A stretch of 32,000 nucleotides of DNA. Origin: Pseudodesulfovibrio piezophilus C1TLV30. GTDB lineage: Bacteria; Desulfobacterota; Desulfovibrionia; Desulfovibrionales; Desulfovibrionaceae. Below are positions 3,547 to 28,769 of this stretch, piece by piece. Under the pieces are notes generated by a model. It had not been told where the DNA came from and ran no database searches. It worked only from the letters and a program-made list of their open reading frames with translations. The translations under genes were made by a program, and so were the position numbers. The stretch is taken from contig NC_020409.1 in assembly GCF_000341895.1 (NCBI RefSeq), forward strand, positions 3,242,411 to 3,274,410. The letters are read 5' to 3'. Each line of letters starts with the position of its first letter. The first letter of the stretch is position 1.

Positions 3547-6500
3547 ATGAAGCTCGACCGTCGTAGCTTTATGAAGCTCGCAGGTTCTGGAGCGGCGTGT
3601 CTCACCTTAGGGCAGCTCGGAGTGAATCTTTCACCGGTCAAGGCTTATGCAGCGGATATCAAGATATCCGGAGCAAAAGAAGTCGTGACTGTTTGTCCGT
3701 TCTGTTCGGTGAGTTGTCACGTCATTGGTCACGTGAAGGGGGGGGAACTCGTCAATACCGAGGGTGATCCCGATTTTCCGGTTAACGAAGGTGCCTTGTG
3801 TGCAAAGGGTGCGGCCATGTTTAGCATGACCACCAGTCACCACAGGCTTCAGAAACCGCTTTACCGCGCTCCCTATAGCGACAAGTGGGAAGAGAAGAGC
3901 TGGGAGTGGATGCTGGACCGTATGGCTCGGCGCATCAAGGACACTCGTGACAAGGATATTATCCTCAAAAACGAGAAAGGCGACACTGTCAACAGGCTCG
4001 AATCCATGTTCCTGCTGGGAACTTCCCACGCCGGGAACGAGGAATGTGCCATCATTCACCAAGCAATGCGAGGCCTGGGCGTCGTCCACATGGACCACCA
4101 GGCCAGGATCTGACACAGCGCAACTGTTGCGGCTCTGGGAGAGTCGTTCGGACGCGGTGCGATGACCAACCACTGGATTGACATCAAGAATGCCGATTCA
4201 GTCCTTATAATGGGCAGTAATGCTGCCGAACATCATCCGATCTCATTCAAATGGGTCTTGCGGGCCAAGGACAAGGGCGCCACTGTTATGCATGTGGACC
4301 CGAAGTTCTCTCGTACATCCGCACGGTCGGATTTCCATGTTCCCTTGCGGTCCGGTACGGATATCGCTTTCCTCGGGGGCATGATCAAGTACATTCTCGA
4401 AAATGAGAAATTCTTCCACGAATATGTTGTCGAATACACCAATGCCGCGCTCATCGTGGGCAAGGACTATGGTTTCAAGGACGGCCTTTTCACCGGTTAC
4501 GATGCAAAGACCCGTTCCTACGACAAAAGCAAGTGGGGCTTTGAGATGGACTCGAAGGGGGTACCCAAGAGAGACAAGAGTCTCAAACACCCCCGGTGCG
4601 TTTATCAACTGATGAAGGCTCACTATTCGCGCTACAATATCGAGGCGGTTTCAGCCACGACTGGTGTCTCTGCGGAAAACCTGATGAAGGTCTATGAGAA
4701 CTTCGCTGCAACCGGTGTCAAGGACAAGGCCGGGACCATCATGTACGCTCTCGGCTGGACTCAGCATACTGTGGGTGTGCAGAATATTCGCTCCGCCGCC
4801 ATTATTCAGCTTTTGCTGGGCAATATCGGTGTTGCCGGTGGCGGTATCAACGCCCTGCGTGGTGAGCCGAATGTTCAGGGGTCCACAGACCATACCCTGC
4901 TGTACCACATTATCCCCGGCTATATGGCCATGCCGCATAACGGGTGGCAGACCTACGACGAATACGTCAAGGCCAACACCCCGGTGAGCAATGATCCCAT
5001 GTCGGCGAACTGGTGGCAGCACAAGCCCAAGTACTTTGCCAGCCTGCTGAAGGCTTGGTACGGTGAAAAAGCCACCAGAGAAAACGGCTTCTGCTATGAA
5101 CTGCTTCCCAAGATTGAAAAGGGCGAGGATTATTCCTACATGTTCCTGTTCGATCGCATGTATAACAAGCAGATTCGTGGCGGATTCATTATCGGGCTGA
5201 ACCCGATGAACAGTGTCCCGAATACGAATAAGGTCAGAAAGGCCTTGGATAATCTGGACTGGCTGATTACCTCTGAACTGCATCATTCCGAAACTACGGA
5301 CAACTGGCAGCGCCCCGGCGTTGATCCCAAGAAGATCAAGACCGAGGTGTTCCTGTTACCTTCGGCTCACCGTCTGGAGAAGGAAGGGTCCACCACCAAC
5401 TCCGGTCGCTGGTTGCTTTGGCATAATCAGGCTACCAAGCCTGCATACGAGGCCAAGCCGTTTGGTGATCTGTTCTGTGGCGTCATGAACCATGTGAAGG
5501 CTTTGTATGCCAAGGAAGGGGGAACTCTTCCCGAAGCCGTGACCTGGCTTGATTACCCTGAAAAGTATGATCCCGAAGACCTGTGCGCCCGTATCAACGG
5601 TCGTTTCCTCGAAGACACGGAATTCAAGGGCAAGAAATACAAGAAAGGGCAGCAACTGCCGTCCTTTACTGCGCTCAAGGATGACGGCTCCACCATGAGT
5701 CTGAACTGGCTTTATGCCGGGAGTTATACCGAAGAGGGTGGCAACAAGGCCAAACGTCGTGAGACGACACAGACCGAAATGCAGAAGACTATCGGTTTGT
5801 ATCCGAAATGGTCATGGTGCTGGCCGGTCAATCGTCGTATTCTGTACAACCGTGCCTCTGTCGACTTTGACGGCAAGCCATACAATCCGGCCAAGGCCGT
5901 CATTGAATGGAAGGACGGCAAGTGGGTTGGTGATGTGCCTGATGGAGGCTGGCCACCGATTGCCACCGGTAAAGGTCGCTATCCGTTCATCATGTCCAAG
6001 AATGGTTTCGGGCAGATATTCGGTCCGGGACGTCAGGACGGACCGTTCTCCGAACATTACGAACCGGTGGAAACACCAGTTGATTCGAATATGTTCTCCA
6101 AGCAGCTCAGCAGTCCTGTTTACAAGTCCGTGAACAGTGATATGGACAAGCTTGCACAACCCAATAGTCCCGACTATCCCATTGTTCTGACGACTTATAG
6201 TCTGACAGAGCACTGGTGCGGCGGTGGTGAAACAAGAAACGTTCCCAACCTGCTGGAAACCGAGCCTCAACTCTATGTCGAGATGAGCCCGGAACTGGCT
6301 CAGGAAAAAGGTATCGTCAATGGTGATGGTGTGATCGTCGAGAGTATCCGCGGACGGGTCGAGGCCATAGCCATGGTCACGGTTCGCATGCGTCCTCTCA
6401 AGGTCCATGGTCGAATTGTTCACGAAATCGGCATGCCGTTCTGCTTCGGCTGGACAACGCCAGGGACGGGTGATGCCACCAACAGGCTGACGCCTTCGGT

Positions 6501-6588
6501 TGGTGATCCCAATACAACCATCCCTGAGTACAAGGCCTGCTGTGTGAATATTCGTAAGGCAGACAAGCTCACTGAGCTGGCAACCTAA
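3547..6588 (+). CDS. fdhA: Periplasmic formate dehydrogenase catalytic subunit, selenocysteine-containing (TGA at 4111-4113 read as Sec)
   Basis: Track ORFs 3547..4113 and 4162..6588 share one frame. Translating through the TGA gives VVHMDHQARI-U-HSATVAALGESFGRGAMTNHWIDIKNAD, the canonical FDH active-site context. A twin-arginine signal is present (MKLDRRSFMKLAGSGAA...AYA), as is the N-terminal Fe-S Cys motif (VCPFCSVSCH...C). AGGAGG RBS upstream. Confidence 0.93.
4111..4140 (+). promoter_or_regulatory. UGA(Sec) recoding site with candidate SECIS hairpin immediately downstream
   Basis: After the UGA comes CACAGCGCAACUGUUGCGGCUCUGGG. AGCGCAA (4117-4123) can pair with UUGCG(G)CU (4127-4134), with one bulged G. 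The fold was done by eye only. Confidence 0.5.
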
Positions 6589-9279: not shown

Positions 9280-10374
9280 TCATGACGGTATGGCTTGCTG
9301 CCCAGGGGAAGGGACAGGGCGTGTCTGCTTTATTCGTCGTTTGAAATCCGCGATGCCAGGGGCGAAGAGGGTATGCATCAGCATGGCTCCCATAAGTGTT
9401 ATTATCAGCAGTACGCAACCGTTTGGTTCATCCTGGTAGGTCTCGAAAATGGCAATGACAATAAAATGAATCAGATAGAAAGGGTAGCTGATTTGCCCAA
9501 GTACTTTGTCCAGGCGCGAGCGTCGGAATGCACGAAAAATACATGGCATTGTGAAGAGGACCAGCATGGGGAGAAAAAAAGGTTCCAGGTACTCATCAAC
9601 ATCGTTGGCAACGCAGATAAGACCCACAAGGAGTAGGAAGGCGAACGAGTCAAGACCGCTTTGTCTGTCAGGCAGTGATTTGTGAACTCGATAGGCAAGG
9701 ATGCCTCCGCCGAAAAGCCAGAATTCGAGAGGGAAAAAACGGAGAAAGAATTTCATGCTTACAAAAGGAGACATCACAATCAGTATTTTGGCACATAGAC
9801 TGGCTGCGATCAAAAGCAGGAGGGTCTTCGTTTTGAATCTCACGAGGATTGGAACCATGGCATAGAAGATAACTTCCAGTGAGAGCGACCACGCTTGAAG
9901 GACAGGAGCTAGTCGCCAGAGAGCATGCCTGCTGTATTCGACAAAATGTATGCTCCCATCAGGGAGTCGGACCAGGCTGAAAAGGAGTTCCTGCCCCACA
10001 ATGAAGAGTGAAGTAAATGACACGAGCAGGAAGCCTGCTGGATCAGTCAGGAACTTTTTGAGTTCCTGAGCACAGTTCATCGGATGTACATCGAGACTGA
10101 CGATAAGAGCCACGCTGAGTGTCAAAGTGAAAAGGTACATGGGATAAAGTGCCATGAAGCGACTTGCATAAAACGAGCGCGTTGTTTCGTAGGACGTGTC
10201 GAGGATTAGCGCCATGTAAAAACCCGAGATAGCGAAAAAAGACAGTACAGCTTCATGACCATCCACTATCGGGAGATCGAAAGTAGGGAAATGAGAGTTG
10301 AAGACAGCTATGGCCAGGATTATTCGTATAATGCCCATGGAGTATCTCGTTGTCTGTCCCGCCAAAAGAAGCAT
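9280..10374 (-). CDS. Acyltransferase family 3 integral membrane protein (OafA/YrhL-like)
   Basis: Polytopic hydrophobic protein with an N-terminal IILAIAVFNSHF...FFAISGFYMALIL pattern typical of acyltransferase_3. The start is uncertain (11 codons downstream there is an alternative ATG at 10338). Confidence 0.7.
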   Translation of the reverse strand: MLLLAGQTTRYSMGIIRIILAIAVFNSHFPTFDLPIVDGHEAVLSFFAISGFYMALILDTSYETTRSFYASRFMALYPMYLFTLTLSVALIVSLDVHPMNCAQELKKFLTDPAGFLLVSFTSLFIVGQELLFSLVRLPDGSIHFVEYSRHALWRLAPVLQAWSLSLEVIFYAMVPILVRFKTKTLLLLIAASLCAKILIVMSPFVSMKFFLRFFPLEFWLFGGGILAYRVHKSLPDRQSGLDSFAFLLLVGLICVANDVDEYLEPFFLPMLVLFTMPCIFRAFRRSRLDKVLGQISYPFYLIHFIVIAIFETYQDEPNGCVLLIITLMGAMLMHTLFAPGIADFKRRIKQTRPVPSPGQQAIPS

Positions 10375-10442: not shown

Positions 10443-10484
10443 AAAAAGAGAATAGGCAGGCAGCAAGAAAGTTTTGCTGCCTGC
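10443..10484 (-). terminator. Stem-loop terminator downstream of the SET-domain gene
   Basis: An 11-bp perfect stem, GCAGGCAGCAA (10456-10466) / TTGCTGCCTGC (10474-10484), is followed on the minus strand by CTATTCTCTTTTTCA. Confidence 0.6.
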
Positions 10485-10551
10485 GAGTTATTCTTTCAAA
10501 TTATTTCTTAGCCATTAAAGCCCAAGGGCGAGCGCGGTACGGAGTCTGCGG

Positions 10552-11160
10552 TCATGTAGACTGTCGGTATCGGCTTTCGTTGGTATTGCAAGGCCAGAAC
10601 TGAGGTATAGGGTTCCTCGCCGCAGAGATATGCCCGTAATTTTTTTTCGTCTCACCTTCCATATACTTCATGAGGGGCTGGTGAACTGCTGTGACTTTGT
10701 TTAGGGCACTGATGATTTTGACATCCCAAACTTCGTGGTAGCGTTCCAGGTCATCCGGACGGAGAGCTTTTCGACAGTTGGGACAATTGCATTCCAGAGG
10801 GATGATCTCTTCCAGGTTGAAAAGACCATAATCGTCACATATCTCTTCACCTTCGTGGATATCCCTGAGAGCTATTTCAAATCCGTACCCGGTACTGATG
10901 GTATTGCAGTCACATTTATGATTGACGAATTTGGCATGATCCCAACTCAGGATGCGTATTCCTTTTTCATCAATATAGGAAAATTTGTCCGCGATGGTTT
11001 TATGGTCATCATCCAGCTCATTGAAATCTTTTTCCGAGAGCTCTATTTCGAGTTGATCTTTGACATAAACTATGGTGCCACGGGGGATGTCGGCAGTGGC
11101 AAAAACGCCGTAACCGATGGATGCATTGACAAATCGTACTTCTGTTTTCGGATGAATCAT
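10552..11160 (-). CDS. SET-domain protein lysine methyltransferase with post-SET Cys cluster
   Basis: GYGVFATADIPRGTIVY, FVNHKCDCN (the NHSC-type motif), EEICDDYG (the ELxxDY-type motif) and post-SET CNCPNC are present. The start is set at ATG 11160 (MIHPKTEV) because the 11280 start would overlap the upstream gene by 80 nt. Confidence 0.8.
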   Translation of the reverse strand: MIHPKTEVRFVNASIGYGVFATADIPRGTIVYVKDQLEIELSEKDFNELDDDHKTIADKFSYIDEKGIRILSWDHAKFVNHKCDCNTISTGYGFEIALRDIHEGEEICDDYGLFNLEEIIPLECNCPNCRKALRPDDLERYHEVWDVKIISALNKVTAVHQPLMKYMEGETKKNYGHISAARNPIPQFWPCNTNESRYRQST

Positions 11161-11200
11161 GGTGAAAATCTCTTCGTTTGGGTGGATGTATGAGAAGAGG

Positions 11201-11473
11201 CTACCAGTCGTCGTCGCTCTGGTAATCCATTTCGTCTTCAAGTTTGTAGTTGCGAATCTTGATGCGGTATTCATCTTCACTTTCCGTGATAATGCCCTGT
11301 GCGGTCACCCAGCGGTCTATGTGATCTATCAATTGTTCGCCATTCTCATTGTTTTCGACAAGAAATTCCTCTTCACCATCCACCAGAATGACGATTCCGG
11401 AGACGGCATCGTCGTCCCAGTCCAAAGGCAGGACTTGTCCATACAAAGAATCTTCATATATCTCCAAGGCCAT
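11201..11473 (-). CDS. Small acidic protein of unknown function (90 aa), paralog of 12467..12739
   Basis: A strong RBS (AAAGGAGGTAAATT-ATG) lies 17 nt after the GNAT stop. It shares the pattern G.V.P..WDD...V.G......GE.E..V.N...........GII with the other 90-aa ORF. Confidence 0.7.
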   Translation of the reverse strand: MALEIYEDSLYGQVLPLDWDDDAVSGIVILVDGEEEFLVENNENGEQLIDHIDRWVTAQGIITESEDEYRIKIRNYKLEDEMDYQSDDDW

Positions 11474-11490
11474 AATTTACCTCCTTTTTC

Positions 11491-12054
11491 TTACTGATAT
11501 TGCAGATCACTCTCTTGAGATTCAAGAATGAGGCGATAGACGATGCCCCCATCCGATGGGACAAAGTGTTTATGGAAACGATTTTCGAGTTGAAATTCAT
11601 TTGCCTCATAGAAAAGTCGGGCGTTTTCGTAGGCGCGAGATGCTCCGGTCTCCAGGAATATCCGCTTGCCGGTGCCTGCCGTTACCTGTCGCTTCATCTC
11701 GGAGATGAGGGCTGAACCGATCCCAAGGCGTTGAAATTCAGGGTCAACAGCAATCCCATATAGTTCATACGTCTCGGTCCAATGTGGAATACGGCCGTAG
11801 CAAATGAACCCCACCGTTTTTTCCGTGCCGGATTCGTTGACAGTCGCCTGAAGGAACGTGTGCGTTTCAGAACCATCTCCATATGCACTGTCCCAAGCCA
11901 TGTCTTCGGCAGACATCATGGCGTCGGATGAGAAAAGGCCACTTGCCGCCGCCATGTTCAAGATGTTTTCGACATCTGCGGGTGCGACACCGGAAATGAT
12001 GTGAATTTCACGAACGTCACATGGGCGGATTTCTTCATTGATGATCATGTCCAT
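11491..12054 (-). CDS. GNAT-family N-acetyltransferase
   Basis: Contains the acetyl-CoA-binding motif region LYGIAVDPEFQRLGIGSALISEMKRQV and a GNAT-type C-terminal beta strand. The ATG is 2 nt after the stop of the upstream ORF (GGAGCTAACAATG). Confidence 0.85.
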   Translation of the reverse strand: MDMIINEEIRPCDVREIHIISGVAPADVENILNMAAASGLFSSDAMMSAEDMAWDSAYGDGSETHTFLQATVNESGTEKTVGFICYGRIPHWTETYELYGIAVDPEFQRLGIGSALISEMKRQVTAGTGKRIFLETGASRAYENARLFYEANEFQLENRFHKHFVPSDGGIVYRLILESQESDLQYQ

Positions 12055-12056
12055 TG

Positions 12057-12464
12057 TTAGCTCCGAGTTGCTTCTACCGTCTGTTTGCAGGACGGTATGA
12101 AGGCAATGACCCTGTTGCTGAGAACCCTGTCTTTCATGATGGGCCGTTCATGAGGAAGGGAGCAGACGGCGCAGGCCCGGCATGGGAGCGTCGGGGGATT
12201 CCATGCCGTTCCCTTGAATACCGAGCCTGTGCTGTCGTGTAACAAAGCCCCGGAAACATTCCGGGTGCCCTGAAAAGAGTGCGAGAATTGTCTGTTTATA
12301 AACTCAGCAGATGCGTGCATCTGCGAGGGATTGAGTACTTTGAACCGTTGACCAGGAGTGTGCATCTGGGCGCAGTGCGATCTGCGGTGCTCAAACACCA
12401 GATGAAGACAGAGCACCAGGAACAAAGTCGCACAGGGACAAAAATAATCTGGGAAGAATGACAT
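12057..12464 (-). CDS. Hypothetical Cys/His-rich protein (135 aa) with one N-terminal hydrophobic helix
   Basis: The ORF exactly fills the gap between two supported genes. Its ATG is 2 nt after the upstream stop, with AAAGGAG inside the upstream gene's end, and its stop is 2 nt before the GNAT ATG. A CRACAVC motif is present. There is no recognisable family, it uses several rare codons (AGA, AGG, ATA), and the region is dense in hairpins, so coding status is not certain. Confidence 0.45.
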   Translation of the reverse strand: MSFFPDYFCPCATLFLVLCLHLVFEHRRSHCAQMHTPGQRFKVLNPSQMHASAEFINRQFSHSFQGTRNVSGALLHDSTGSVFKGTAWNPPTLPCRACAVCSLPHERPIMKDRVLSNRVIAFIPSCKQTVEATRS

Positions 12465-12466
12465 GT

Positions 12467-12739
12467 TTAGTCTTCTCCTTTTTCAAGGAGTGTGAAACTT
12501 TCAAGTTGAATAGTTTCCAATAGCCCGGATTTTTTTATTATCCCCGTGAAGATGGCTTCTGATTGCGCCAAGGATTTCAGTGCAGGAAAACTTGTCAAAT
12601 TCACAATTCGAACTTCTCGTTCACCAGGGCATGCCACATGGACTCCGGTCACCTTGAAGTGATCATCCCACTGTTCCGGGACTATCACTCCACGGATAAC
12701 TCCCTTGTGACTTTGTTTGGTGCTTGTTGAGTGTGCCAT
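12467..12739 (-). CDS. Small protein of unknown function (90 aa), paralog of 11201..11473; first gene of the cassette
   Basis: It is the first ORF downstream of the -24/-12 promoter and shares the WDD / GE.E / GII pattern with the second 90-aa ORF. Confidence 0.65.
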   Translation of the reverse strand: MAHSTSTKQSHKGVIRGVIVPEQWDDHFKVTGVHVACPGEREVRIVNLTSFPALKSLAQSEAIFTGIIKKSGLLETIQLESFTLLEKGED

Positions 12740-12774
12740 TTTGTTTCCATCCCCAAAAAAGGGTGACTTCTCTT

Positions 12775-12791
12775 AAGCAGAGGCTGTGCCA
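12775..12791 (-). promoter_or_regulatory. Sigma-54 (-24/-12) promoter TGGCAC-AGCCT-CTGCTT
   Basis: The minus strand reads TGGCACAGCCTCTGCTT with exact GG-N10-GC spacing. The GC lies 38 nt upstream of ATG 12739. A sigma-54 activator gene is directly upstream. Confidence 0.8.
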
Positions 12792-12844
12792 ACATAGATT
12801 TGCTTGAAATGTATGGATTATTTTAGAAACAAAAGCACAAAACA

Positions 12845-12859
12845 AGAACTCTCAGTTCT
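12845..12859. promoter_or_regulatory. Candidate enhancer (UAS) site 1: palindrome AGAACT-CTC-AGTTCT
   Basis: Perfect 6-3-6 inverted repeat ~60 bp upstream of the -24 element. The same motif recurs at 12972 and 13003. Confidence 0.55.
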
Positions 12860-12971
12860 CTCAAAATGGAGGGGAAGGAGGAGGAAAAGACTTTTTCGAG
12901 CTGGAAAGGGAGTGATCTTTAAGAGTGTCTTTTGTAGAAAATCTTTATTTACAAGATGTTACATTCAAATA

Positions 12972-12986
12972 GGAATTCTGAGTTCC
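12972..12986. promoter_or_regulatory. Candidate UAS site 2: GGAATT-CTG-AGTTCC
   Basis: Matches the GAAyTCTsAGTTC motif (5 of 6 bp in the inverted repeat), ~190 bp upstream of the promoter. Confidence 0.5.
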
Positions 12987-13002
12987 TGTTTTGTTGCTTG
13001 AG

Positions 13003-13017
13003 AGACTTCTCAGTTCT
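13003..13017. promoter_or_regulatory. Candidate UAS site 3: AGACTT-CTC-AGTTCT
   Basis: Third copy of the TTCTCAGTTCT core. Its centre is 31 bp from site 2, and it overlaps the stop codon of the activator gene. Confidence 0.45.
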
Positions 13018-14407
13018 TGTTTTTGAAATCAGCCCGATAAAGAGAATGCCGATTCATGAGTTTATTTAACTGCCGAGTTGTCACTCCTGCCCTCTGTGCG
13101 GCGTCTTTCATGATGCCATTACATTGTTCCAGCAGGCTTGTGAGATATTGTTTTTCGAATTTATCCACAGTAATCTGTCTCGCCATTTTGAGCGGAAGGT
13201 CTGTTTTGACGGGTGAGGTGACCACTTCGCCTTGGGTATCAAGAAGGTCGGGAGGGAAGCTTTCGGGATGGAGGATTTCACCTGTTTCGAGAATACAGGC
13301 CCGTTCGATGACATTTTCCAACTCTCGGACATTGCCCGGCCAGTCATACTCCAAGAGAGTGTCGAGTACATGGGGATGCATCCCCTTCAATTCCGTGTTG
13401 AGTTGCCCATTGAATTGCCTGATAAAATATTCTGAAAGTCTTGGGATATCTTCTCGGCGTTCCCGCAAAGACGGGATACGGATTGGGAAAACATTCAGTC
13501 TGTAAAAGAGGTCACGGCGAAATTTGCCATCTTCACAAAGTTTTCCCATGTCTTCGTTGGTCGCAGCGATAATGCGGACATCCACGGGAATATCATGCTC
13601 GCCACCGACACGCTGAATCCGCCTTTCCTGGATGACATTGAGCAGTTTAACTTGCACAGATTGGCTGACAGTTCCTATCTCATCAAGAAAAATGGTGCCG
13701 CCTTGAGCCAGTTCAAATTTTCCGAGTTTGCGGCGAACGGCCCCGGTAAAGGCACCTTTTTCGTGGCCGAAAAGCTCACTTTCAACGAGTGTGTCCGGGA
13801 TTGCCCCGCAGTGAATGCTGATGAATGGTTTCTCTTTACGATTGCTATGGGCGTGAAGGAGTTTGGCTATAAGGCTTTTCCCTGTGCCTGTTTCTCCTGT
13901 GAGAAGAACAGTGGTCCGGGTGCCTGCCACCTGTCTGATTTTGACAAAGACAGCGCGCATGGCTTTGCTGTTGGTATCCACATAATCGAGGAAATCTTCA
14001 TTCCAAAATTGATCTCGCAAATAATCCAGTTCTGATTGGAGGACATCGGATTCCCGGACTTTTTTAACAACCAGTCCCAGTTCCTCTTTCTCTATGGGGT
14101 GCGTCAGGTAATCAAACGCCCCGGCGTTGACTGCGTCCACGGCAAATCCGGTTTGCTCTTCATCTGCCATGACTACAATGGCTGCCGACGGGTAGTGCGT
14201 CCAGAAGCTTTCAAGCGCCTTGTTGATGGATTTATTCGACTCAAGCAGGGACTCCACATCGACGAATACTGTATCGACTTCCCTATCCGGGGGCTGCTCT
14301 CCGGATTCAGTTGCTGTTTCCGTGTGGATTTTTGTATCCTGAAAGAGCAGGCTGCCAATTTCTTCGGAACGATTTCCATCGCGCGTGATGACAAGCATTT
14401 TTCTCAT
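13010..14407 (-). CDS. Sigma-54-dependent transcriptional activator (bEBP) with atypical receiver-like N domain, AAA+ domain and Fis-type HTH
   Basis: [15 protein letters not shown] (Walker A), [15 protein letters not shown] (GAFTGA loop), and a C-terminal HTH ([18 protein letters not shown]). In the N domain the acidic pair is replaced (VITRDG) and the conserved Lys is replaced by His (YLTHP). AGGAGG RBS. Confidence 0.9.
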
Positions 14408-19271: not shown

Positions 19272-19359
19272 ATGATTATAGACATGTGCGATTTTTTACG
19301 GCATGCCTGGACTCTGGTCCCTCATCTTTGAATGTGACGACAACGGGAGGATTACGCCC

Positions 19360-21435
19360 ATGAGTTGGTTTGGAATAGGGAAAAAAACAGTGCCCGAAAC
19401 GGTGACTCCTGAATCGGTTGCAACACCGACACCTCCCCCCTCTTTCCCGGTTTCGTCACACCATAGGGAACTCCGTGACAGAATCGAATCAGCGGGATTG
19501 CCAGACGAGATTCTCGACGCTGCCCGATCCGAATTTGAACGTGCTGACAGCATTGATCCCTCTTCGCCGGAATATGCCATCGGTTTGAATTATCTTGATT
19601 TTATTCTTTCCCTCCCCTGGAAAGAACGGACCAAGGATGATCTCGATATTCATCGGGCTGATGAAGTCCTGAATGCACGGCATTTTGGGTTACGGCAAGT
19701 CAAGGATCGGATTTTGGAATTTCTCGCGGTAAAAAACCTTCGAGGCCGCTATTCCCCACGTATTCTGCTGGTTGATGACGAAGCCATCGCACGGGAAAAT
19801 CTGTCAATCGTCTTTGAAATGGACGGGTTTGATGTTGTTGCCGTTGGCAACGGTCTTGAGGCAGTGGCTGCCATGGAAGAGGAGCCTGCCGATGTCGTGG
19901 TATCTGATTTGAAAATGGACGGCATGGATGGGATGGAACTCTTGCAGGTCCTCAGGCAACGGTGGCCTGATACCAAAGTTGTCATGTTGACAGGGTATGC
20001 AACAGTCAAGTCGGCTGTCGAAGCCATGCAACAAGGGGCGGATCAGTACCTTGGCAAACCTGTCAATCTGACAAAACTTCGAAAATATGTGGCCGATCTG
20101 TATGAACAGAGTCTTCGTGTCGAACACTTGCGCGGTCCTGTGCTGTGTTTCTCCGGGCCTCCCGGAATGGGCAAGACCTCCATTGGGAAGGGGATAGCCG
20201 AAGCTCTGGGGAGAAAGTTCATTCGACTTTCTCTTGCTGGGTTGCATGATGAAGCTGAATTGCGCGGTCATCGGCGGACCTATGTGGGGGCCATGCCCGG
20301 TCGTATCTTGCAGGGAATTCAGAAAGCCGGGTCCATGAACCCCGTTATCATGCTGGATGAGGTGGATAAGGCGGTTCAGAATTTTCAGGGCGATGCCACG
20401 TCTGTCTTATTGGAGATGCTTGATCCCGAACAGAACAATGCCTTTGTGGATCATTATCTTGGTCTTCCCTTTGATCTTTCGGGAGCCTTGTTTCTTTGCA
20501 CGGCAAATGCCGTTGAGAGGCTTCCTGCCCCGCTTCTGGATCGGCTTGAGGTCATCCATTTCCCAAGTTACACTCGGCAGGAAAAACTCCATATAGCCAC
20601 ACAGCATTTGGTACCCGAGCAACTGCGGATGCATGGTCTGGATGAGCGCTTGGTATCCTTGACCCCGGAAGCTGTTGCCCAAATCATACGGGAATACACA
20701 CGCGAGGCCGGACTGCGTGGCTTACGGATGCAGGTGGCGTCGCTGTGCCGAAAACTGGCCAAGGAAGTTCTGGCGGATGGGGACGGGCCAAGAGTTGTGG
20801 GGCCGGAAAGAGTGCTTTTTCTTTTGGGACCACCTCCCTTTGCAACGACGGAAGCACAGGGGGCTCCGAAGGTCGGCTTGGCGACAAGTCTGGTCTGGAC
20901 TGAAAATGGTGGTGAGATCATTTTTGTGGAAGCCGCACGAATGCGTGGCAACAAGCACCTTCTGCTTACGGGATCTTTGGGAGAAGTCCTGCGGGAATCC
21001 GCGCATACCGCCTTGAGCTATATCCGCAGCCATGCGGACGAGTTTAGCATAGCGCAGGATTTCTTTGAGAGCAGCGACATTCATGTCCATATTCCCGCCG
21101 GTGCCATTTCCAAGGAAGGCCCATCGGCCGGTGTTTCCATTGCTCTGGCGTTGTTGTCTTTGCTGACAGGGCGACCTGTGCGCCAGGATGTGGCCCTGAC
21201 AGGCGAGTTGTCACTTCTTGGCGACGTTTTGCCGGTCGGTGGAGTTCGGGAAAAGCTGATGGCCGCTCAACAGGCGGGAATCGCAATGGTCATTTTGCCC
21301 AAGGGGTGTGAACGACGTTTGGAGACTATTGAGGAAGAAGTGCTGCATGAGCTTGACATTCGCCTTGTCTCAACGATGGACGAAGCTGCGGCGTTAGCTC
21401 TGTGCGATCCTCCTAGGTCAAATGATATTTCTTAA
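19360..21435 (+). CDS. Lon-family ATP-dependent protease lacking the N-terminal LON domain and carrying an inserted CheY-like receiver (REC) domain
   Basis: Lon helical segment (LPWKERT...HFGLRQVKDRILEFLAV). REC (RILLVDDE...VVVSDLKMDGMDG...VVMLTGY...YLGKP) at about nt 19759-20103. AAA+ (GPPGMGKT, VIMLDEVDK). Lon_C with catalytic Ser (KEGPSAGVS) and Lys (GGVREKLMAA). GGGAGG lies 9 nt upstream of ATG 19360; the track start at 19303 has no RBS. Confidence 0.9.
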   Translation: MSWFGIGKKTVPETVTPESVATPTPPPSFPVSSHHRELRDRIESAGLPDEILDAARSEFERADSIDPSSPEYAIGLNYLDFILSLPWKERTKDDLDIHRADEVLNARHFGLRQVKDRILEFLAVKNLRGRYSPRILLVDDEAIARENLSIVFEMDGFDVVAVGNGLEAVAAMEEEPADVVVSDLKMDGMDGMELLQVLRQRWPDTKVVMLTGYATVKSAVEAMQQGADQYLGKPVNLTKLRKYVADLYEQSLRVEHLRGPVLCFSGPPGMGKTSIGKGIAEALGRKFIRLSLAGLHDEAELRGHRRTYVGAMPGRILQGIQKAGSMNPVIMLDEVDKAVQNFQGDATSVLLEMLDPEQNNAFVDHYLGLPFDLSGALFLCTANAVERLPAPLLDRLEVIHFPSYTRQEKLHIATQHLVPEQLRMHGLDERLVSLTPEAVAQIIREYTREAGLRGLRMQVASLCRKLAKEVLADGDGPRVVGPERVLFLLGPPPFATTEAQGAPKVGLATSLVWTENGGEIIFVEAARMRGNKHLLLTGSLGEVLRESAHTALSYIRSHADEFSIAQDFFESSDIHVHIPAGAISKEGPSAGVSIALALLSLLTGRPVRQDVALTGELSLLGDVLPVGGVREKLMAAQQAGIAMVILPKGCERRLETIEEEVLHELDIRLVSTMDEAAALALCDPPRSNDIS

Positions 21436-24951: not shown

Positions 24952-24968
24952 AAGCAGGAATCGTGCCC
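24952..24968 (-). promoter_or_regulatory. Candidate sigma-54 promoter GGGCAC-GATTC-CTGCTT
   Basis: The minus strand has exact GG-N10-GC spacing and the same CTGCTT -12 region as the promoter at 12775-12791. The GC lies 41 nt upstream of the TrmO-like ATG. Confidence 0.55.
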
Positions 24969-25225: not shown

Positions 25226-25283
25226 TAAATATAGACTTTACAACATTTTTTTTGTGTGCATAATGCCTCAAGGAAGGAATGCT

Positions 25284-26477
25284 ATGAGAGAGTCTTTGCA
25301 GGTTGAGAAATTTGAAAAAATGAGTGACGGGCAGCTTCTGGCCTTGCGGAACTGTCTTGATACAGTCATTTCCGCAAGGGATGGGCTGGTGGGTCAACCC
25401 GATTTCACAATGGCATCCGGCTCGCAAGCCTGTCGTTTTTTTACCGTGCCGGACGGTGTGCGACGGCTGGATAAACATCAGGTTGAACAGCTGACCAGAG
25501 CTTTTGAAGAATGGGTTGGTGAATCTCGTGATGCCCGTACCCTCAGGTCAAGAGAACGTGTTTTTATAACATTTCTTGTTCTTCGGTACACAGGAGCGCG
25601 ATTGGGCGAGGTCCAGTCTTTGGACGAGACTCGAGATATAGATTTTCAGCACTGTTTTGTCCGCCTTCCTCTGGGGACTGGTGTGCATGGGAAAAGTGGG
25701 GTGCGGGAAGTCCCCATTCCAGCGGAAGTCATGGCTCGGATCAGTGAATGGTGTGAGCGAAATGCGAGTGCCAAGTCCAACCGGAACTCCCGTGAGACCC
25801 TGTTCCATTTCGATCAGGGATTCTTGCGCCGTAAATTTCACGAACAGGAAAAGCGGTCAGGGCTGCCCCGCGAATTATTGAATCCGAGCGGTTTGCGGAA
25901 TTCCCGCGCCATTGAATTGATGCAGGGCGGTATGCCAATGCGTGCAGTACAAGCTTTGCTCGGGTATTCCAAATCGGATTTTATTTCATCATTTGTCACT
26001 CTTGCTGACAATGACTTGAAATGTGTTGTTCAGCATTATTGCAAAAAGGAATTCGGAATGGAAACAAGTGCCAGAAATACATTCAAGGGACAGGTTGTTC
26101 GCGTTCTGGCCAATCCTGTAATGTGCGAGATCGTCCTGCGCACAGAATCGGGGTATGAGGTCGCGGCCACGGTGACTAACCAGAGCCGGGAGAAGCTTGG
26201 ACTTGAAGAAGGCCGACCTGCTTCTGCCTTGATCAAAGCGACATGGGTGATCCTTGAAAAAGGTGATACGAAGCCAGAGACCAGCGCCCGGAATGCTTTC
26301 CCCGGAACCATCACCAAGGTGACCAGTGATGGTATCACTGCGGAGGTGGACGGCAGTCTGGACGATGGCACCCCCGTGTGTGCTCTGGTCACCGCAGGCA
26401 GTTTCGAAAAACTCGGTATCGGTGAAGGTGATCGGTTCATTTTCATGTTCAAGGCTATGTCTGTCATTATCAGCTAA
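25284..26477 (+). CDS. tunR: TunR-family Mo/W-responsive regulator: degenerate tyrosine-recombinase-like DNA-binding domain fused to two Mop/TOBE domains
   Basis: Integrase-like box I (LVLRYTGARLGEV) and box II (LRNSRAIELMQGGMPMRAVQALLGYS). The C-terminus has two repeats of TSARN.F.G.(V/I) Mop motifs (TSARNTFKGQVV..., TSARNAFPGTIT...). AGGAAGG RBS before ATG 25284. It lies next to modBAC. Confidence 0.75.
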   Translation: MRESLQVEKFEKMSDGQLLALRNCLDTVISARDGLVGQPDFTMASGSQACRFFTVPDGVRRLDKHQVEQLTRAFEEWVGESRDARTLRSRERVFITFLVLRYTGARLGEVQSLDETRDIDFQHCFVRLPLGTGVHGKSGVREVPIPAEVMARISEWCERNASAKSNRNSRETLFHFDQGFLRRKFHEQEKRSGLPRELLNPSGLRNSRAIELMQGGMPMRAVQALLGYSKSDFISSFVTLADNDLKCVVQHYCKKEFGMETSARNTFKGQVVRVLANPVMCEIVLRTESGYEVAATVTNQSREKLGLEEGRPASALIKATWVILEKGDTKPETSARNAFPGTITKVTSDGITAEVDGSLDDGTPVCALVTAGSFEKLGIGEGDRFIFMFKAMSVIIS

Positions 26478-26531: not shown

Positions 26532-27221
26532 ATGAATATTGTATGGATTGATCTGACGGATTCGGCTTTTTCCGGCCCCTTACTTCTGACTCTCAAAGTG
26601 GCCGGGTTGGCGACGATTTGGTCATTGATTCTGGGAGTGGCAGCAGCGTACGCCCTGTCTCGTTGGCGTTTTTTCGGGCGTGATTTTGCGGATGCTGTCT
26701 TTACCTTGCCCATGGTCATGCCGCCGACCGTGCTCGGGTATTACCTGCTGGTGCTCATTGGTCGCAGGGGTGTCTTGGGTGAATGGCTTCAGGCGAATTT
26801 CGGCATCAGTCTCATGTTTACCTGGCAGGGAGCAGTCATCGCGGCCACGGTGGTTGCCTTTCCGCTGGTGTTCAAATCGGCGCGCGCAGCCCTGGAAGGC
26901 GTGGGGAAGCAGTACGAAAACGCCGCGCGCACCTTGGGCCAGGGGGAACTCTCGGTATTCCTCCGGGTTTCGTTGCCTCTGGCCTTTCGCGGCGTGCTGT
27001 CCGGCGGTATGCTCGCTTTTGCCCGTGCCATGGGCGAGTTCGGTGCCACCCTTATGGTGGCGGGAAATCTTCCAGGTAAGACCCAGACACTCTCTCTCGC
27101 TGTCTACTCTGCCGTTCAAGCCGGAAATGATGGGCTGGCGAACACATTGGTTTTGATTATCAGTGTGGTCTGCGTACTCATCCTCATGGCTACCAGTAAA
27201 CTCTTGCAACCTCGTTTTTAA
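26532..27221 (+). CDS. modB: Molybdate/tungstate ABC transporter permease
   Basis: 229-aa, ~5-TM protein with LPMVMPPTVLGYYLL and the EAA-like loop ENAARTLGQGELSVFLRVSLPLA, typical of ModB/CysTW permeases. Confidence 0.85.
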   Translation: MNIVWIDLTDSAFSGPLLLTLKVAGLATIWSLILGVAAAYALSRWRFFGRDFADAVFTLPMVMPPTVLGYYLLVLIGRRGVLGEWLQANFGISLMFTWQGAVIAATVVAFPLVFKSARAALEGVGKQYENAARTLGQGELSVFLRVSLPLAFRGVLSGGMLAFARAMGEFGATLMVAGNLPGKTQTLSLAVYSAVQAGNDGLANTLVLIISVVCVLILMATSKLLQPRF

Positions 27222-27242
27222 CCACCATTCAAGGAGTTCCCA

Positions 27243-28007
27243 ATGAAACGTTGTCATGTCTTTGTCTTGTGCCTGTTCTCGCTGACTCTTGTTTTCGGAA
27301 GTTCTCAGGCTGCTCAGGCTCAGGAGTTGATTGTGTCGGCTGCGGCCAGTCTTACCGATGCCTTCAGCGATATTGAACCAGCTTTTGAAAAAGCGCACCC
27401 TGGTGTTGATGTCATCATGAATTTTGCTTCATCCGGGGCTTTGTTTCGTCAGATAGAACAGGGCGCACCGGCTGATGTTTATGCTTCTGCCAACCCCAAA
27501 TGGATGCGCAAAGCCGTGGAAAAAGGCTTTGTCGCTCAGGATGACGTCCAGGTCTTTGCCCGTAATTCACTGGTTTTGGCTACTCCTTCGGATAATCCGG
27601 CCGGTGTGAAAACGTTGGCTGACCTGACCGGTCCGTCAGTGAAATCCATTGGTATCGGTACACCTGAGACCGTCCCTGCCGGGCAGTATGCCAAGGGTGC
27701 ATTGACAGCCAAGTCCCTGTACGCCACATTGACTCCGAAGATGATTTTCGGTGAATCTGTTCGTCAGGTTCTGGACTACTTATCCCGTGGCGAAGTCGAT
27801 TGTGGTTTCGTCTACGGCACTGATGCTGTCAAAGCTGGAAAAAGTGTCCGTATTATCGAGGAAGTTCCTCTGGAGAAGCCTGTGACCTATCCCATCTCAG
27901 TGCTCAAGAATTCCGGTGTTTCAGATATGGCCAAGGCATTCGTGGACTTTGTCCGCAGTGATGCTGGTGCTTCCTTGTTGGAAGGCCGTGGTTTCAAGCG
28001 TCCTTAA
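27243..28007 (+). CDS. modA: Molybdate/tungstate ABC transporter periplasmic binding protein
   Basis: Signal peptide (...SSQAAQA), then LIVSAAASLTDAF...NFASSGALFRQIEQGAPADVYASAN, the ModA signature region. AAGGAG RBS. Confidence 0.85.
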   Translation: MKRCHVFVLCLFSLTLVFGSSQAAQAQELIVSAAASLTDAFSDIEPAFEKAHPGVDVIMNFASSGALFRQIEQGAPADVYASANPKWMRKAVEKGFVAQDDVQVFARNSLVLATPSDNPAGVKTLADLTGPSVKSIGIGTPETVPAGQYAKGALTAKSLYATLTPKMIFGESVRQVLDYLSRGEVDCGFVYGTDAVKAGKSVRIIEEVPLEKPVTYPISVLKNSGVSDMAKAFVDFVRSDAGASLLEGRGFKRP

Positions 28008-28025
28008 GAGGAAATCCGAGTCTTC

Positions 28026-28769
28026 ATGAAATTTGAACTTGATATATCAAAACGACTGAACGGCGGAGGAGACGAATTTCTCCTCCGCTCCCGGTTTTCG
28101 ACCACTGATCGGGCCTTGGTGCTTTTCGGGCCGTCCGGGTCGGGAAAAACACTGACGCTTCGTTCCATTGCCGGATTGCTTACGCCGGATGACGGCTACA
28201 TAAAGGTCAATGGCGAAGTGATCTTTGATGCCAAAGCCGGGATCAATGTGCCGACGCGTGAGCGAAATGTCGGCTATGTCTTTCAGGATTATGCGCTTTT
28301 TCCCCATCTGACGGTGCGGGAGAATATAGCCTTTGGGCTTAAGCCTCTTTTCGGCAGGTTGAGCGGGAAGAAGCAACGGCATGTGGAAGATCTCATTGCG
28401 GTTTTTGGATTGGAGAAGGTCGCCGGGCAAAAGCCCGGTGCGATGTCCGGCGGGCAGCAACAACGGACTGCGCTCGCTCGGGCGTTGGCCACGTCGCCGA
28501 AGCTGCTCTTGCTTGACGAGCCTTTTAGCGCGCTTGATCAGCCTTTACGTTTGCGGATGCGGACCGAGCTTGCAAGAGTTCTGGAAACATTCGATATTCC
28601 AATGATCATGGTCACGCATGATTCTGATGAAGTGGAATCTTTTGCTGAAACCATCGTCGTTTACAGGAATGGAAGCGTGGAAGACGTCCATTCGGCCCGC
28701 AAGTTTATTGATTCCGGTGAGAGCATGACAGAAGCCCTCTGTCGACAGGTTGCCCGCTCCTACGATTAG
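28026..28769 (+). CDS. modC: ABC transporter ATP-binding protein of the mod system (no C-terminal TOBE domain)
   Basis: Walker A (GPSGSGKT), signature (MSGGQQQR), Walker B (LLLLDEPFSALD). The protein ends ~20 aa after the H-loop region. Confidence 0.8.
   Translation: MKFELDISKRLNGGGDEFLLRSRFSTTDRALVLFGPSGSGKTLTLRSIAGLLTPDDGYIKVNGEVIFDAKAGINVPTRERNVGYVFQDYALFPHLTVRENIAFGLKPLFGRLSGKKQRHVEDLIAVFGLEKVAGQKPGAMSGGQQQRTALARALATSPKLLLLDEPFSALDQPLRLRMRTELARVLETFDIPMIMVTHDSDEVESFAETIVVYRNGSVEDVHSARKFIDSGESMTEALCRQVARSYD

Follow-up and report, generated by a model that had tools for sequence, protein, structure and literature searches.

A predicted sigma-54 module with a linked activator, three upstream sites and a cassette of uncharacterised function in Pseudodesulfovibrio piezophilus

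Do an orphan activator gene, three palindromes, a -24/-12 promoter and the closely packed genes behind it form one dedicated sigma-54 switch, and if so, what does that switch control? The question is raised by a locus of the deep-sea sulfate reducer Pseudodesulfovibrio piezophilus C1TLV30, which we analyzed within a 32,000-nucleotide (nt) stretch of contig NC_020409.1 (positions 3,242,411 to 3,274,410; hereafter the window, numbered from its first letter). An earlier note on this DNA had placed a self-contained module at positions 10552 to 14407, comprising an activator, three palindromic sites, a promoter and a five-gene cassette ending at a terminator, and had concluded that the complete regulatory logic was visible. 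We consider it likely, with good confidence, that the locus is a dedicated sigma-54 module in which the activator would act through three sites on one promoter in front of a cassette of uncharacterised function. The activator gene, a 270-bp spacer, the cassette (gene A, an open reading frame [ORF-B], and genes for a GNAT acetyltransferase, protein D and a SET-domain methyltransferase), a hairpin and an Acyl_transf_3 gene all lie on the minus strand (Table 1), and the six proteins of the region are exact matches to the C1TLV30 records CCH50226-50230.

The candidate promoter carries its GG doublet at 12790/89 (-25/-24) and its GC doublet at 12778/77 (-13/-12), 10 bp apart, and its 17-mer lies 35 nt from the ATG of gene A at 12739 (38 nt if counted from the -12 C). 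The earlier note had both its position and the GG-N10-GC spacing right: TGGCAC-N6-TGCW has one perfect match in the 32-kb window, which makes this the sole perfect sigma-54 match there. The ortholog-derived form TGGCAY-N6-TGCTT likewise occurs once in the window (0.03 expected), and in 22 loci it is found once per locus, every time before gene A, with a distance to the gene A start of 32 to 36 nt across orthologous loci. Transcription is predicted to start near 12765.

Upstream of this promoter, the three palindromes are found exactly where the earlier note had located them. The proximal one, site 1, is perfect, with 6-bp arms around a 3-bp centre (AGAACT-N3-AGTTCT); site 2 reads GGAACT-N3-AATTCC, and the distal site 3 reads AGAACT-N3-AAGTCT. 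A repeat comparison of the window revealed that the likeness of the sites reaches into their flanks. The window contains the extended half-site AAAACArGAACT three times and no more, each time at one of the sites (0.28 expected; never three times in 100 shuffles), and GAACTSAGA is also present three times, against 0.63 expected. The flank of site 1 is oriented opposite to those of sites 2 and 3, which fits a dyad-symmetric 21-bp site, and the consensus from 19 loci is ACArGAACt-N3-aGTTCyTgT. We also scored the window with a matrix built from 50 orthologous sites of other species, leaving the window itself out and using a threshold of 8 bits. The only matches in the 32 kb were the three sites (24.7 bits for site 2, 18.6 for site 1 and 12.1 for site 3); shuffled windows peaked at 17.0 bits, and site 2 exceeded every shuffle.

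The SET protein has many homologues, and orthologous cassettes were first found on their contigs. An alignment of gene D was then used to scan a genome collection, which yielded another 15 loci in Pseudodesulfovibrio, Desulfovibrio caledoniensis, Maridesulfovibrio and one metagenome-assembled genome. Nineteen nonredundant loci entered a footprint alignment, and four distant ones (L027-L030) were compared besides, giving 23 in total; the cassette is restricted to the Pseudodesulfovibrio/Maridesulfovibrio lineage. All 19 aligned loci hold the activator followed by gene A, the GNAT gene and gene D, and in every complete locus the activator is adjacent and 70 to 84% identical, even where the cargo enzymes are different. 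Mean column identity in the spacer is 51%, as compared with 82%, 87.5% and 94% for the arms of sites 3, 2 and 1, respectively, and 99% for TGGCA/TGCTT. The spacer is conserved at four places only, the three sites (counted by their arms) and an A/T-rich box, together with the promoter; the 3-bp centres and the rest vary freely. Spacings are held as well: 30 to 33 bp from site 3 to site 2, 125 to 127 bp from site 2 to site 1, and 67 to 70 bp from site 1 to TGGCA (66 to 70 bp in all 23 loci). Comparative analysis therefore establishes the predicted promoter, the three candidate sites, their spacings and their linkage to the activator and the A-GNAT-D core, and phylogenetic footprinting strongly supports what the earlier note had proposed: a dedicated activator with three sites and a -24/-12 promoter, in front of an operon closed by a terminator.

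In the 19-locus alignment, nothing between site 1 and the promoter is conserved except the A/T-rich box, ATTTCA-N5-TTr, which stands just 5' of the -24 element. The earlier note had described the AT-rich stretch, which is indeed present, and had missed this box inside it. It has two to three mismatches to the Escherichia coli consensus for integration host factor (IHF), WATCAANNNNTTR, and is a putative IHF-binding site.

The contigs of three of the most distant gene A clusters (29 to 34% identity in A) and one short contig from a metagenome scan for distant A homologues show the same arrangement: an activator, a distal pair of GGAAC-N5-GTTCC sites, a proximal site, TGGCmC-N6-TGCTT and an A homologue. 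In these four loci, the distal pair is 29 to 31 bp apart, and the proximal site lies 66 to 70 bp from the promoter. Separately, we observed that an activator-site-like sequence, GGGAC-N5-(A/G)TTCC, recurs ~70 nt inside gene A in six loci (L005, L007, L010, L013, L015 and L020). Its position coincides with the codons of a conserved WDxxF motif, and hence it probably reflects coding constraint rather than a fourth site.

That the gene directly upstream encodes a sigma-54 activator, as the earlier note had proposed, is borne out by its match to Sigma54_activat (PF00158; E = 3.5e-69). AAA_lid_14 is also present, and the translation displays Walker A and B motifs, FLDEI and a GAFTGA loop. Its best similarities in NCBIfam are to models of AtoC, a PEP-CTERM regulator, NtrC and the like, with scores far under the equivalog cutoffs (e.g., 359 versus 714 for AtoC).

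These parts suggest how the switch would operate. Dimers of the activator would bind the three two-fold symmetric sites near -87, -214 and -245, and three such dimers would supply the six protomers of an active AAA+ ring. A DNA loop joining the distal pair to the proximal site, probably aided by a bend at the IHF-like box near -40, would bring this ring to RNA polymerase-sigma-54 at TGGCAC-N5-CTGCTT, where ATP hydrolysis via the GAFTGA loop would remodel the closed complex and open the promoter. Transcription would then proceed from near 12765 through gene A, the ORF-B slot and the GNAT, D and SET genes to the hairpin. We infer activator binding, hexamer assembly, the involvement of IHF, the start site and cotranscription from the sequence.

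The input to the activator can be read in two ways. It may be a true response regulator that is phosphorylated by an unlinked histidine kinase, with phosphorylation driving assembly. Many Desulfovibrionaceae kinases are orphans, and the receiver-like domain formed by the N-terminal 135 residues keeps an Asp at the expected phosphoacceptor position (FVDVE) in all orthologs. Nevertheless, the domain is degenerate: it scores 18 bits against Response_reg (PF00072), for which the cutoff is 30.2, and matches over residues 64 to 111 only. Relative to NtrC1, the conserved Thr is replaced by Ala and the conserved Lys by His; in all orthologs the Thr is likewise Ala, the Lys is His or Arg, and one Asp of the acidic pocket is Arg, so that the acidic pair is RD and not DD. 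Nor is a cognate kinase conserved beside the activator, whose upstream neighbors differ in every species examined (NhaB, MTHFR, an EF-hand protein, a solute-binding protein, or an unrelated kinase/regulator pair), and the L027 homologue has no N-domain at all. With the conserved Thr and Lys missing from the receiver-like domain and no kinase encoded alongside, classical phosphorylation is unlikely, and the input is probably of another kind; we regard the response-regulator explanation as unlikely, though not negligible. Calling the activator an orphan was therefore fair. The claim that the complete regulatory logic is visible holds for the parts of the switch and was overstated otherwise, given that the input signal is not visible, the receiver is degenerate and no kinase is linked.

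Two further alternatives concern the DNA elements. The palindromes might serve another DNA-binding protein, or sites 2 and 3 might act on the activator gene itself, as a roadblock at its 3' end or in autoregulation, with the activator using other sites. This would suit the overlap of site 3 with the activator stop codon, which is seen in most species. However, the sites co-occur with the activator in all 23 loci despite the change of cargo, they match typical sites of enhancer-binding proteins in position and dyad symmetry, and the helix-turn-helix (HTH) segment TRQLNKLM is conserved together with the GGAAC arms. An autoregulatory site upstream of the activator gene was considered and rejected, since no matrix match of at least 8 bits is present there. 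Taken together, we judge this explanation quite improbable. Even less credible to us is a fortuitous -24/-12 match, with the cassette being read through from the activator gene or transcribed from a sigma-70 promoter. Read-through would be helped by the lack of a detectable terminator between the activator gene and gene A, yet we found no sigma-70-like site on the minus strand of the spacer, and a chance match is at odds with a promoter that is 99% conserved in a spacer at 51% and of which each locus has a single copy, at a constant distance from gene A.

Several observations weigh against a dedicated module in the form preferred here, i.e., one activator acting through three sites on one sigma-54 promoter. 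A search for the bare palindrome AGAACT-N3-AGTTCT with up to three mismatches yielded 13 matches versus 11.5 expected. The extended half-site and the leave-window-out matrix described above took the place of this test; even in the matrix, the 12.1 bits of site 3 fall within the shuffled range. Outside the genus group, the distal-to-proximal distance is 113, 123 or 194 bp, which makes the 126-bp spacing a lineage feature and means that strict phasing is not universal. The Fis-type HTH_8 domain of the activator falls just short of the Pfam cutoff (21.9 versus 22 bits; E = 1.5e-4), in a segment that is conserved in orthologs. The rpoN gene lies outside the window; that the genome has one is an assumption based on the lineage and on a second activator gene that the window contains. 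In the cassette, a terminator-like hairpin is located inside ORF-B (12265-12249), and the SET gene is frameshifted at a minus-strand A8 run (10647-10640) that changes its last ~45 codons. Finally, the 3' end of the operon is uncertain owing to the weak T tail of the last hairpin and the Acyl_transf_3 gene on the same strand.

Parts of this design are found in known systems. PspF is an activator that has no regulatory domain and is regulated in trans by the leading gene of its operon. The L027 activator, at only 322 aa (AAA+ plus HTH), is like PspF, and the small conserved protein A is encoded at the head of the operon without exception; in contrast, protein A is a predicted OB-fold and not a PspA coiled coil, and the P. 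piezophilus activator has an N-domain. Members of the NtrC family (NtrC at glnAp2, NtrC1, ZraR and AtoC) share the order of receiver-like, AAA+ GAFTGA and Fis-type HTH domains as well as tandem dimer sites upstream of a -24/-12 promoter, the HTH and the sites being predicted ones in P. piezophilus, whereas the receiver described here is without the conserved Thr and Lys and has no cognate kinase. As is proposed for the P. piezophilus module, NorR-norVW of E. coli has its activator gene beside the target, three dyad sites at which three dimers form a hexamer, no kinase partner and a nonphosphorylated N-domain, and all three NorR enhancer sites are essential for the active oligomer (PMC2831303). 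NorR differs in its GAF/iron NO-sensing domain, its GT-N7-AC sites and its divergent gene; the module in P. piezophilus has a degenerate receiver, GGAAC-N5-GTTCC sites, tandem genes and a distal pair ~126 bp from the proximal site. As far as its description goes, OrpR of Desulfovibrio vulgaris, which belongs to the same bacterial family, is likewise a dedicated activator beside its target, the orp operons being controlled by sigma-54, IHF and this cognate activator (PMC8359166); IHF-assisted activation, which belongs to that system, is putative in our case. OrpR is described as sensing redox via an Fe-S cluster and serving two divergent operons, and at the level of that description no sequence relationship of sites or cargo was seen.

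Turning to the cargo, the gaps between the five open reading frames are 2, 2, 17 and 40 nt, as the earlier note had given them. Only four of the five are credible genes. ORF-B is absent from the GenBank annotation, and none of the other loci has a homologue of it; the codon log-likelihood of ORF-B is -0.14, compared with +0.18 to +0.37 in the neighboring genes, and its content of G and C at second codon positions is high. Moreover, the RNA of its 412-nt slot folds unusually stably (z = -4.15), and in relatives the slot between gene A and the GNAT gene is either empty or occupied by a signal-peptide protein, B2, which is unrelated to ORF-B. A diverged B2 was tried as an explanation and rejected, with no tblastn match better than E = 0.3. 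A comparison of substitution patterns between near-identical strains identified one substitution only in ORF-B. Against this, the 135-codon open frame fills the slot exactly, an improbable outcome by chance (~0.002 by the rough estimate (61/64)^135). The coding status of ORF-B is doubtful.

Genes A and D have no match in Pfam, NCBIfam or PADLOC, and a word-index homologue search with gene A returned the query only. An exhaustive search among 1.84 billion proteins assigned 20 representative clusters to the gene A family; the gene D family has 86, all from Pseudodesulfovibrio or Maridesulfovibrio. That A and D share homology is evident from BLAST (E = 1e-5) and from a profile-profile comparison (probability of 97.5%, E = 4.9e-12), and the A-like protein of L027 matches both, while B2 was rejected as a homologue of either (hhalign probability of <5%). 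AlphaFold models (pLDDT of 86.8 for A and 76.3 for D) have a five-stranded barrel and one short helix, in agreement with the OB-fold topology, in which the helix lies between strands 3 and 4. Using Foldseek, we retrieved SSB, RPA and SilF-type barrels for A (best E = 1.5e-2) and Stn1/Ten1, RPA, SSB and the LysRS N-domain for D (best E = 4.7e-3); the top OB-fold matches, including SSB/Rim1, have TM-scores of ~0.5 to 0.6, and none reaches E <= 1e-3. Both proteins are predicted to be generic OB-fold proteins and nothing more specific. Since D is extremely acidic, it is unlikely to bind nucleic acid. Its tail is disordered and carries DYxxDDxW, the terminal Trp being invariant, which recalls the tip of the SSB C terminus or the LysW handle.

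The GNAT acetyltransferase, present in all loci, matches Acetyltransf_1 (E = 1e-11; 45.6 bits versus a cutoff of 20.7). RimI, which acetylates S18, is its best named model, but at 40.7 bits against a cutoff of 86.4 (TIGR01575) the protein is not RimI by NCBIfam. Its nearest solved structure is the uncharacterised 2r7h (E = 2.3e-15), with RimI, under the cutoff, coming next.

The last gene matches the Pfam SET domain (E = 5.8e-14; 52.8 bits versus a cutoff of 22.4) and has an NHxCxPN-like motif, FVNHKCDCN. Two metagenome strains that are 99.87% identical carry A9 in place of A8 and encode a 217-aa SET protein ending at the equivalent of 10508; SET homologues are ~217 aa in length, and when the window is read in the alternative frame, the conserved C terminus LRAYLCGEEPY...NG reappears. 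Accordingly, the lower bound of 10552 chosen in the earlier note is a frameshifted stop codon, and the true end of the gene is at ~10508. The difference between A8 and A9 may reflect either a sequencing error in the homopolymer or genuine slippage. A PADLOC scan for defense systems found nothing but one weak SET match. The same SET family also occurs standalone: in Desulfovibrio ferrophilus (L002, 5947-7606; 70% identity), the gene stands beside a 184-aa HU-like gene, which hints at a nucleoid-protein substrate for the family. For bacterial SET proteins in general, few physiological targets are known.

The hairpin after the SET gene, which the earlier note had taken as the terminator, was confirmed in position and 11-bp stem by a consensus scan; 7 of its pairs are GC, the loop has 7 nt, and the tail, CTATTCTCTT, is weak. 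An Acyl_transf_3 gene follows the cassette in 12 of the 19 loci, in L013 only 25 nt past gene D. Given this recurrence, the operon may run beyond the hairpin, and the gene is possibly associated with the cassette. On the 5' side, the module is insulated by the terminator of the upstream gene, identified by Pfam as encoding NhaB. No RNA family match was found in the window with Rfam.

Behind the conserved switch, the cargo varies. Gene A, the GNAT gene and gene D are constant, and the enzymes around this core are swappable. SET, a RimB-like protease with RimK, B2 and Acyl_transf_3 are optional members depending on the species. The protease and the RimK ATP-grasp ligase (PF05618 and PF08443) extend the cassette in L004, L005, L007, L015-L018 and L021, with RimK being 88 to 90% identical across species; P. 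piezophilus and P. sediminis have neither at this locus. This ending recalls rimABK, in which RimK glutamylates S6, with the difference that RimB and RimK are absent from the window. In L027, the cargo consists of A, a radical-SAM lysine-2,3-aminomutase, two ATP-grasp enzymes of the D-Ala-D-Ala-ligase type, a GNAT protein homologous to that of the window (E = 2e-19) and a D-like protein (E = 3e-4). The aminomutase raised the idea that the GNAT protein is a beta-lysine acetyltransferase (AblB), which was rejected because no such NCBIfam match exists and RimI is the best model.

That enzymes which form amides or modify proteins keep recurring beside the A-GNAT-D core suggests a pathway of protein modification or one built on a carrier protein, a reading to which we give a low probability; speculatively, the cargo most likely modifies a protein or makes a small amide-linked product. 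A tentative and bolder version, which we hold to be improbable though worth stating, is that A-GNAT-D is a protein-tagging or carrier system. A and D would be substrates or carriers, with D acting via DYxxDDxW; the GNAT protein and the lineage-swapped enzymes (SET, RimB plus RimK, or the aminomutase plus two ATP-grasp ligases) would process them, and one of the mini-proteins may act back in trans on the activator, in the manner of PspA on PspF. The swapping of enzymes behind an unchanged switch suggests a modular system.

Table 1. Positions of the module's features and of its flanking elements in the window
Feature	Position	Strand	Remarks
Intrinsic terminator of upstream nhaB	14525-14493	-	Strong hairpin, 10-bp stem plus T8, read from sequence
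Gene for sigma-54 enhancer-binding protein, 465 aa	13010..14407	-	
Site 3 (distal), predicted	13000..13020		Core AGAACTGAGAAGTCT at 13017-13003; centre near -245; overlaps activator stop codon
Site 2, predicted	12969..12989		Core GGAACTCAGAATTCC at 12986-12972; centre near -214
Site 1 (proximal), predicted	12842..12862		Core AGAACTGAGAGTTCT at 12859-12845; centre near -87
Conserved A/T-rich box ATTTCA-N5-TTr	12797..12810	-	IHF-core-like; ~-45 to -32
Predicted sigma-54 promoter TGGCACAGCCTCTGCTT (TGGCAC-agcct-CTGCTT)	12775..12791	-	
Gene A, 90 aa	12467..12739	-	First gene after promoter
ORF-B, 135 codons	12057..12464	-	In variable slot
GNAT acetyltransferase, 187 aa	11491..12054	-	
Gene D, 90 aa	11201..11473	-	Very acidic paralogue of A
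SET-domain methyltransferase gene	10508..11160	-	Frameshifted; annotated product stops at 10552
Terminator-like hairpin after SET gene	10456..10484	-	Consensus scan
Acyl_transf_3 membrane acyltransferase	9280..10374	-	Pfam

Elsewhere in the window, a second sigma-54-like promoter (GGGGCAC-gattc-CTGCTT; 24953-24968, minus strand) lies 40 nt upstream of a TrmO-like gene (24913-24407), and genes for a histidine kinase and for a sigma-54 activator with a canonical receiver (24153-22741 and 22744-21413) come next; this set may be an autoregulated second sigma-54 module. The 710-aa protein at 19303-21435 joins a response-regulator receiver to an AAA+ module and a Lon protease domain and is apparently a protease of the Lon type under receiver control. 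The formate dehydrogenase alpha subunit (3547-6588) is split by an in-frame TGA (4111-4113) followed by HSATV, a pattern typical of a selenocysteine codon, and genes for FdhB, FdhE and FdhD follow. A protein with tyrosine-recombinase-like and TOBE domains, which we take to resemble the tungstate-responsive TunR family, adjoins an ABC transporter of the molybdate/tungstate type (25254-26477 and 26532-28769); both families are also found near the activator in L027 (2176-3249).

Targeted literature searches for this combination of genes returned no description of the module, and the paper on the D. vulgaris sigma-54 regulome mentions no SET, GNAT or RimK target, the module being absent there. The switch itself is of an ordinary, well-known regulatory kind, and its interest lies in a clean, conserved architecture joined to an undescribed modular cargo. 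One activator, three sites and one promoter would offer a defined handle on an uncharacterised cassette, and GGAAC-N5-GTTCC adds a predicted recognition motif for the many unassigned sigma-54 activators of sulfate reducers. The cargo includes two unannotated protein families and, in free-living bacteria, a SET methyltransferase that is predicted to be under tight transcriptional control.

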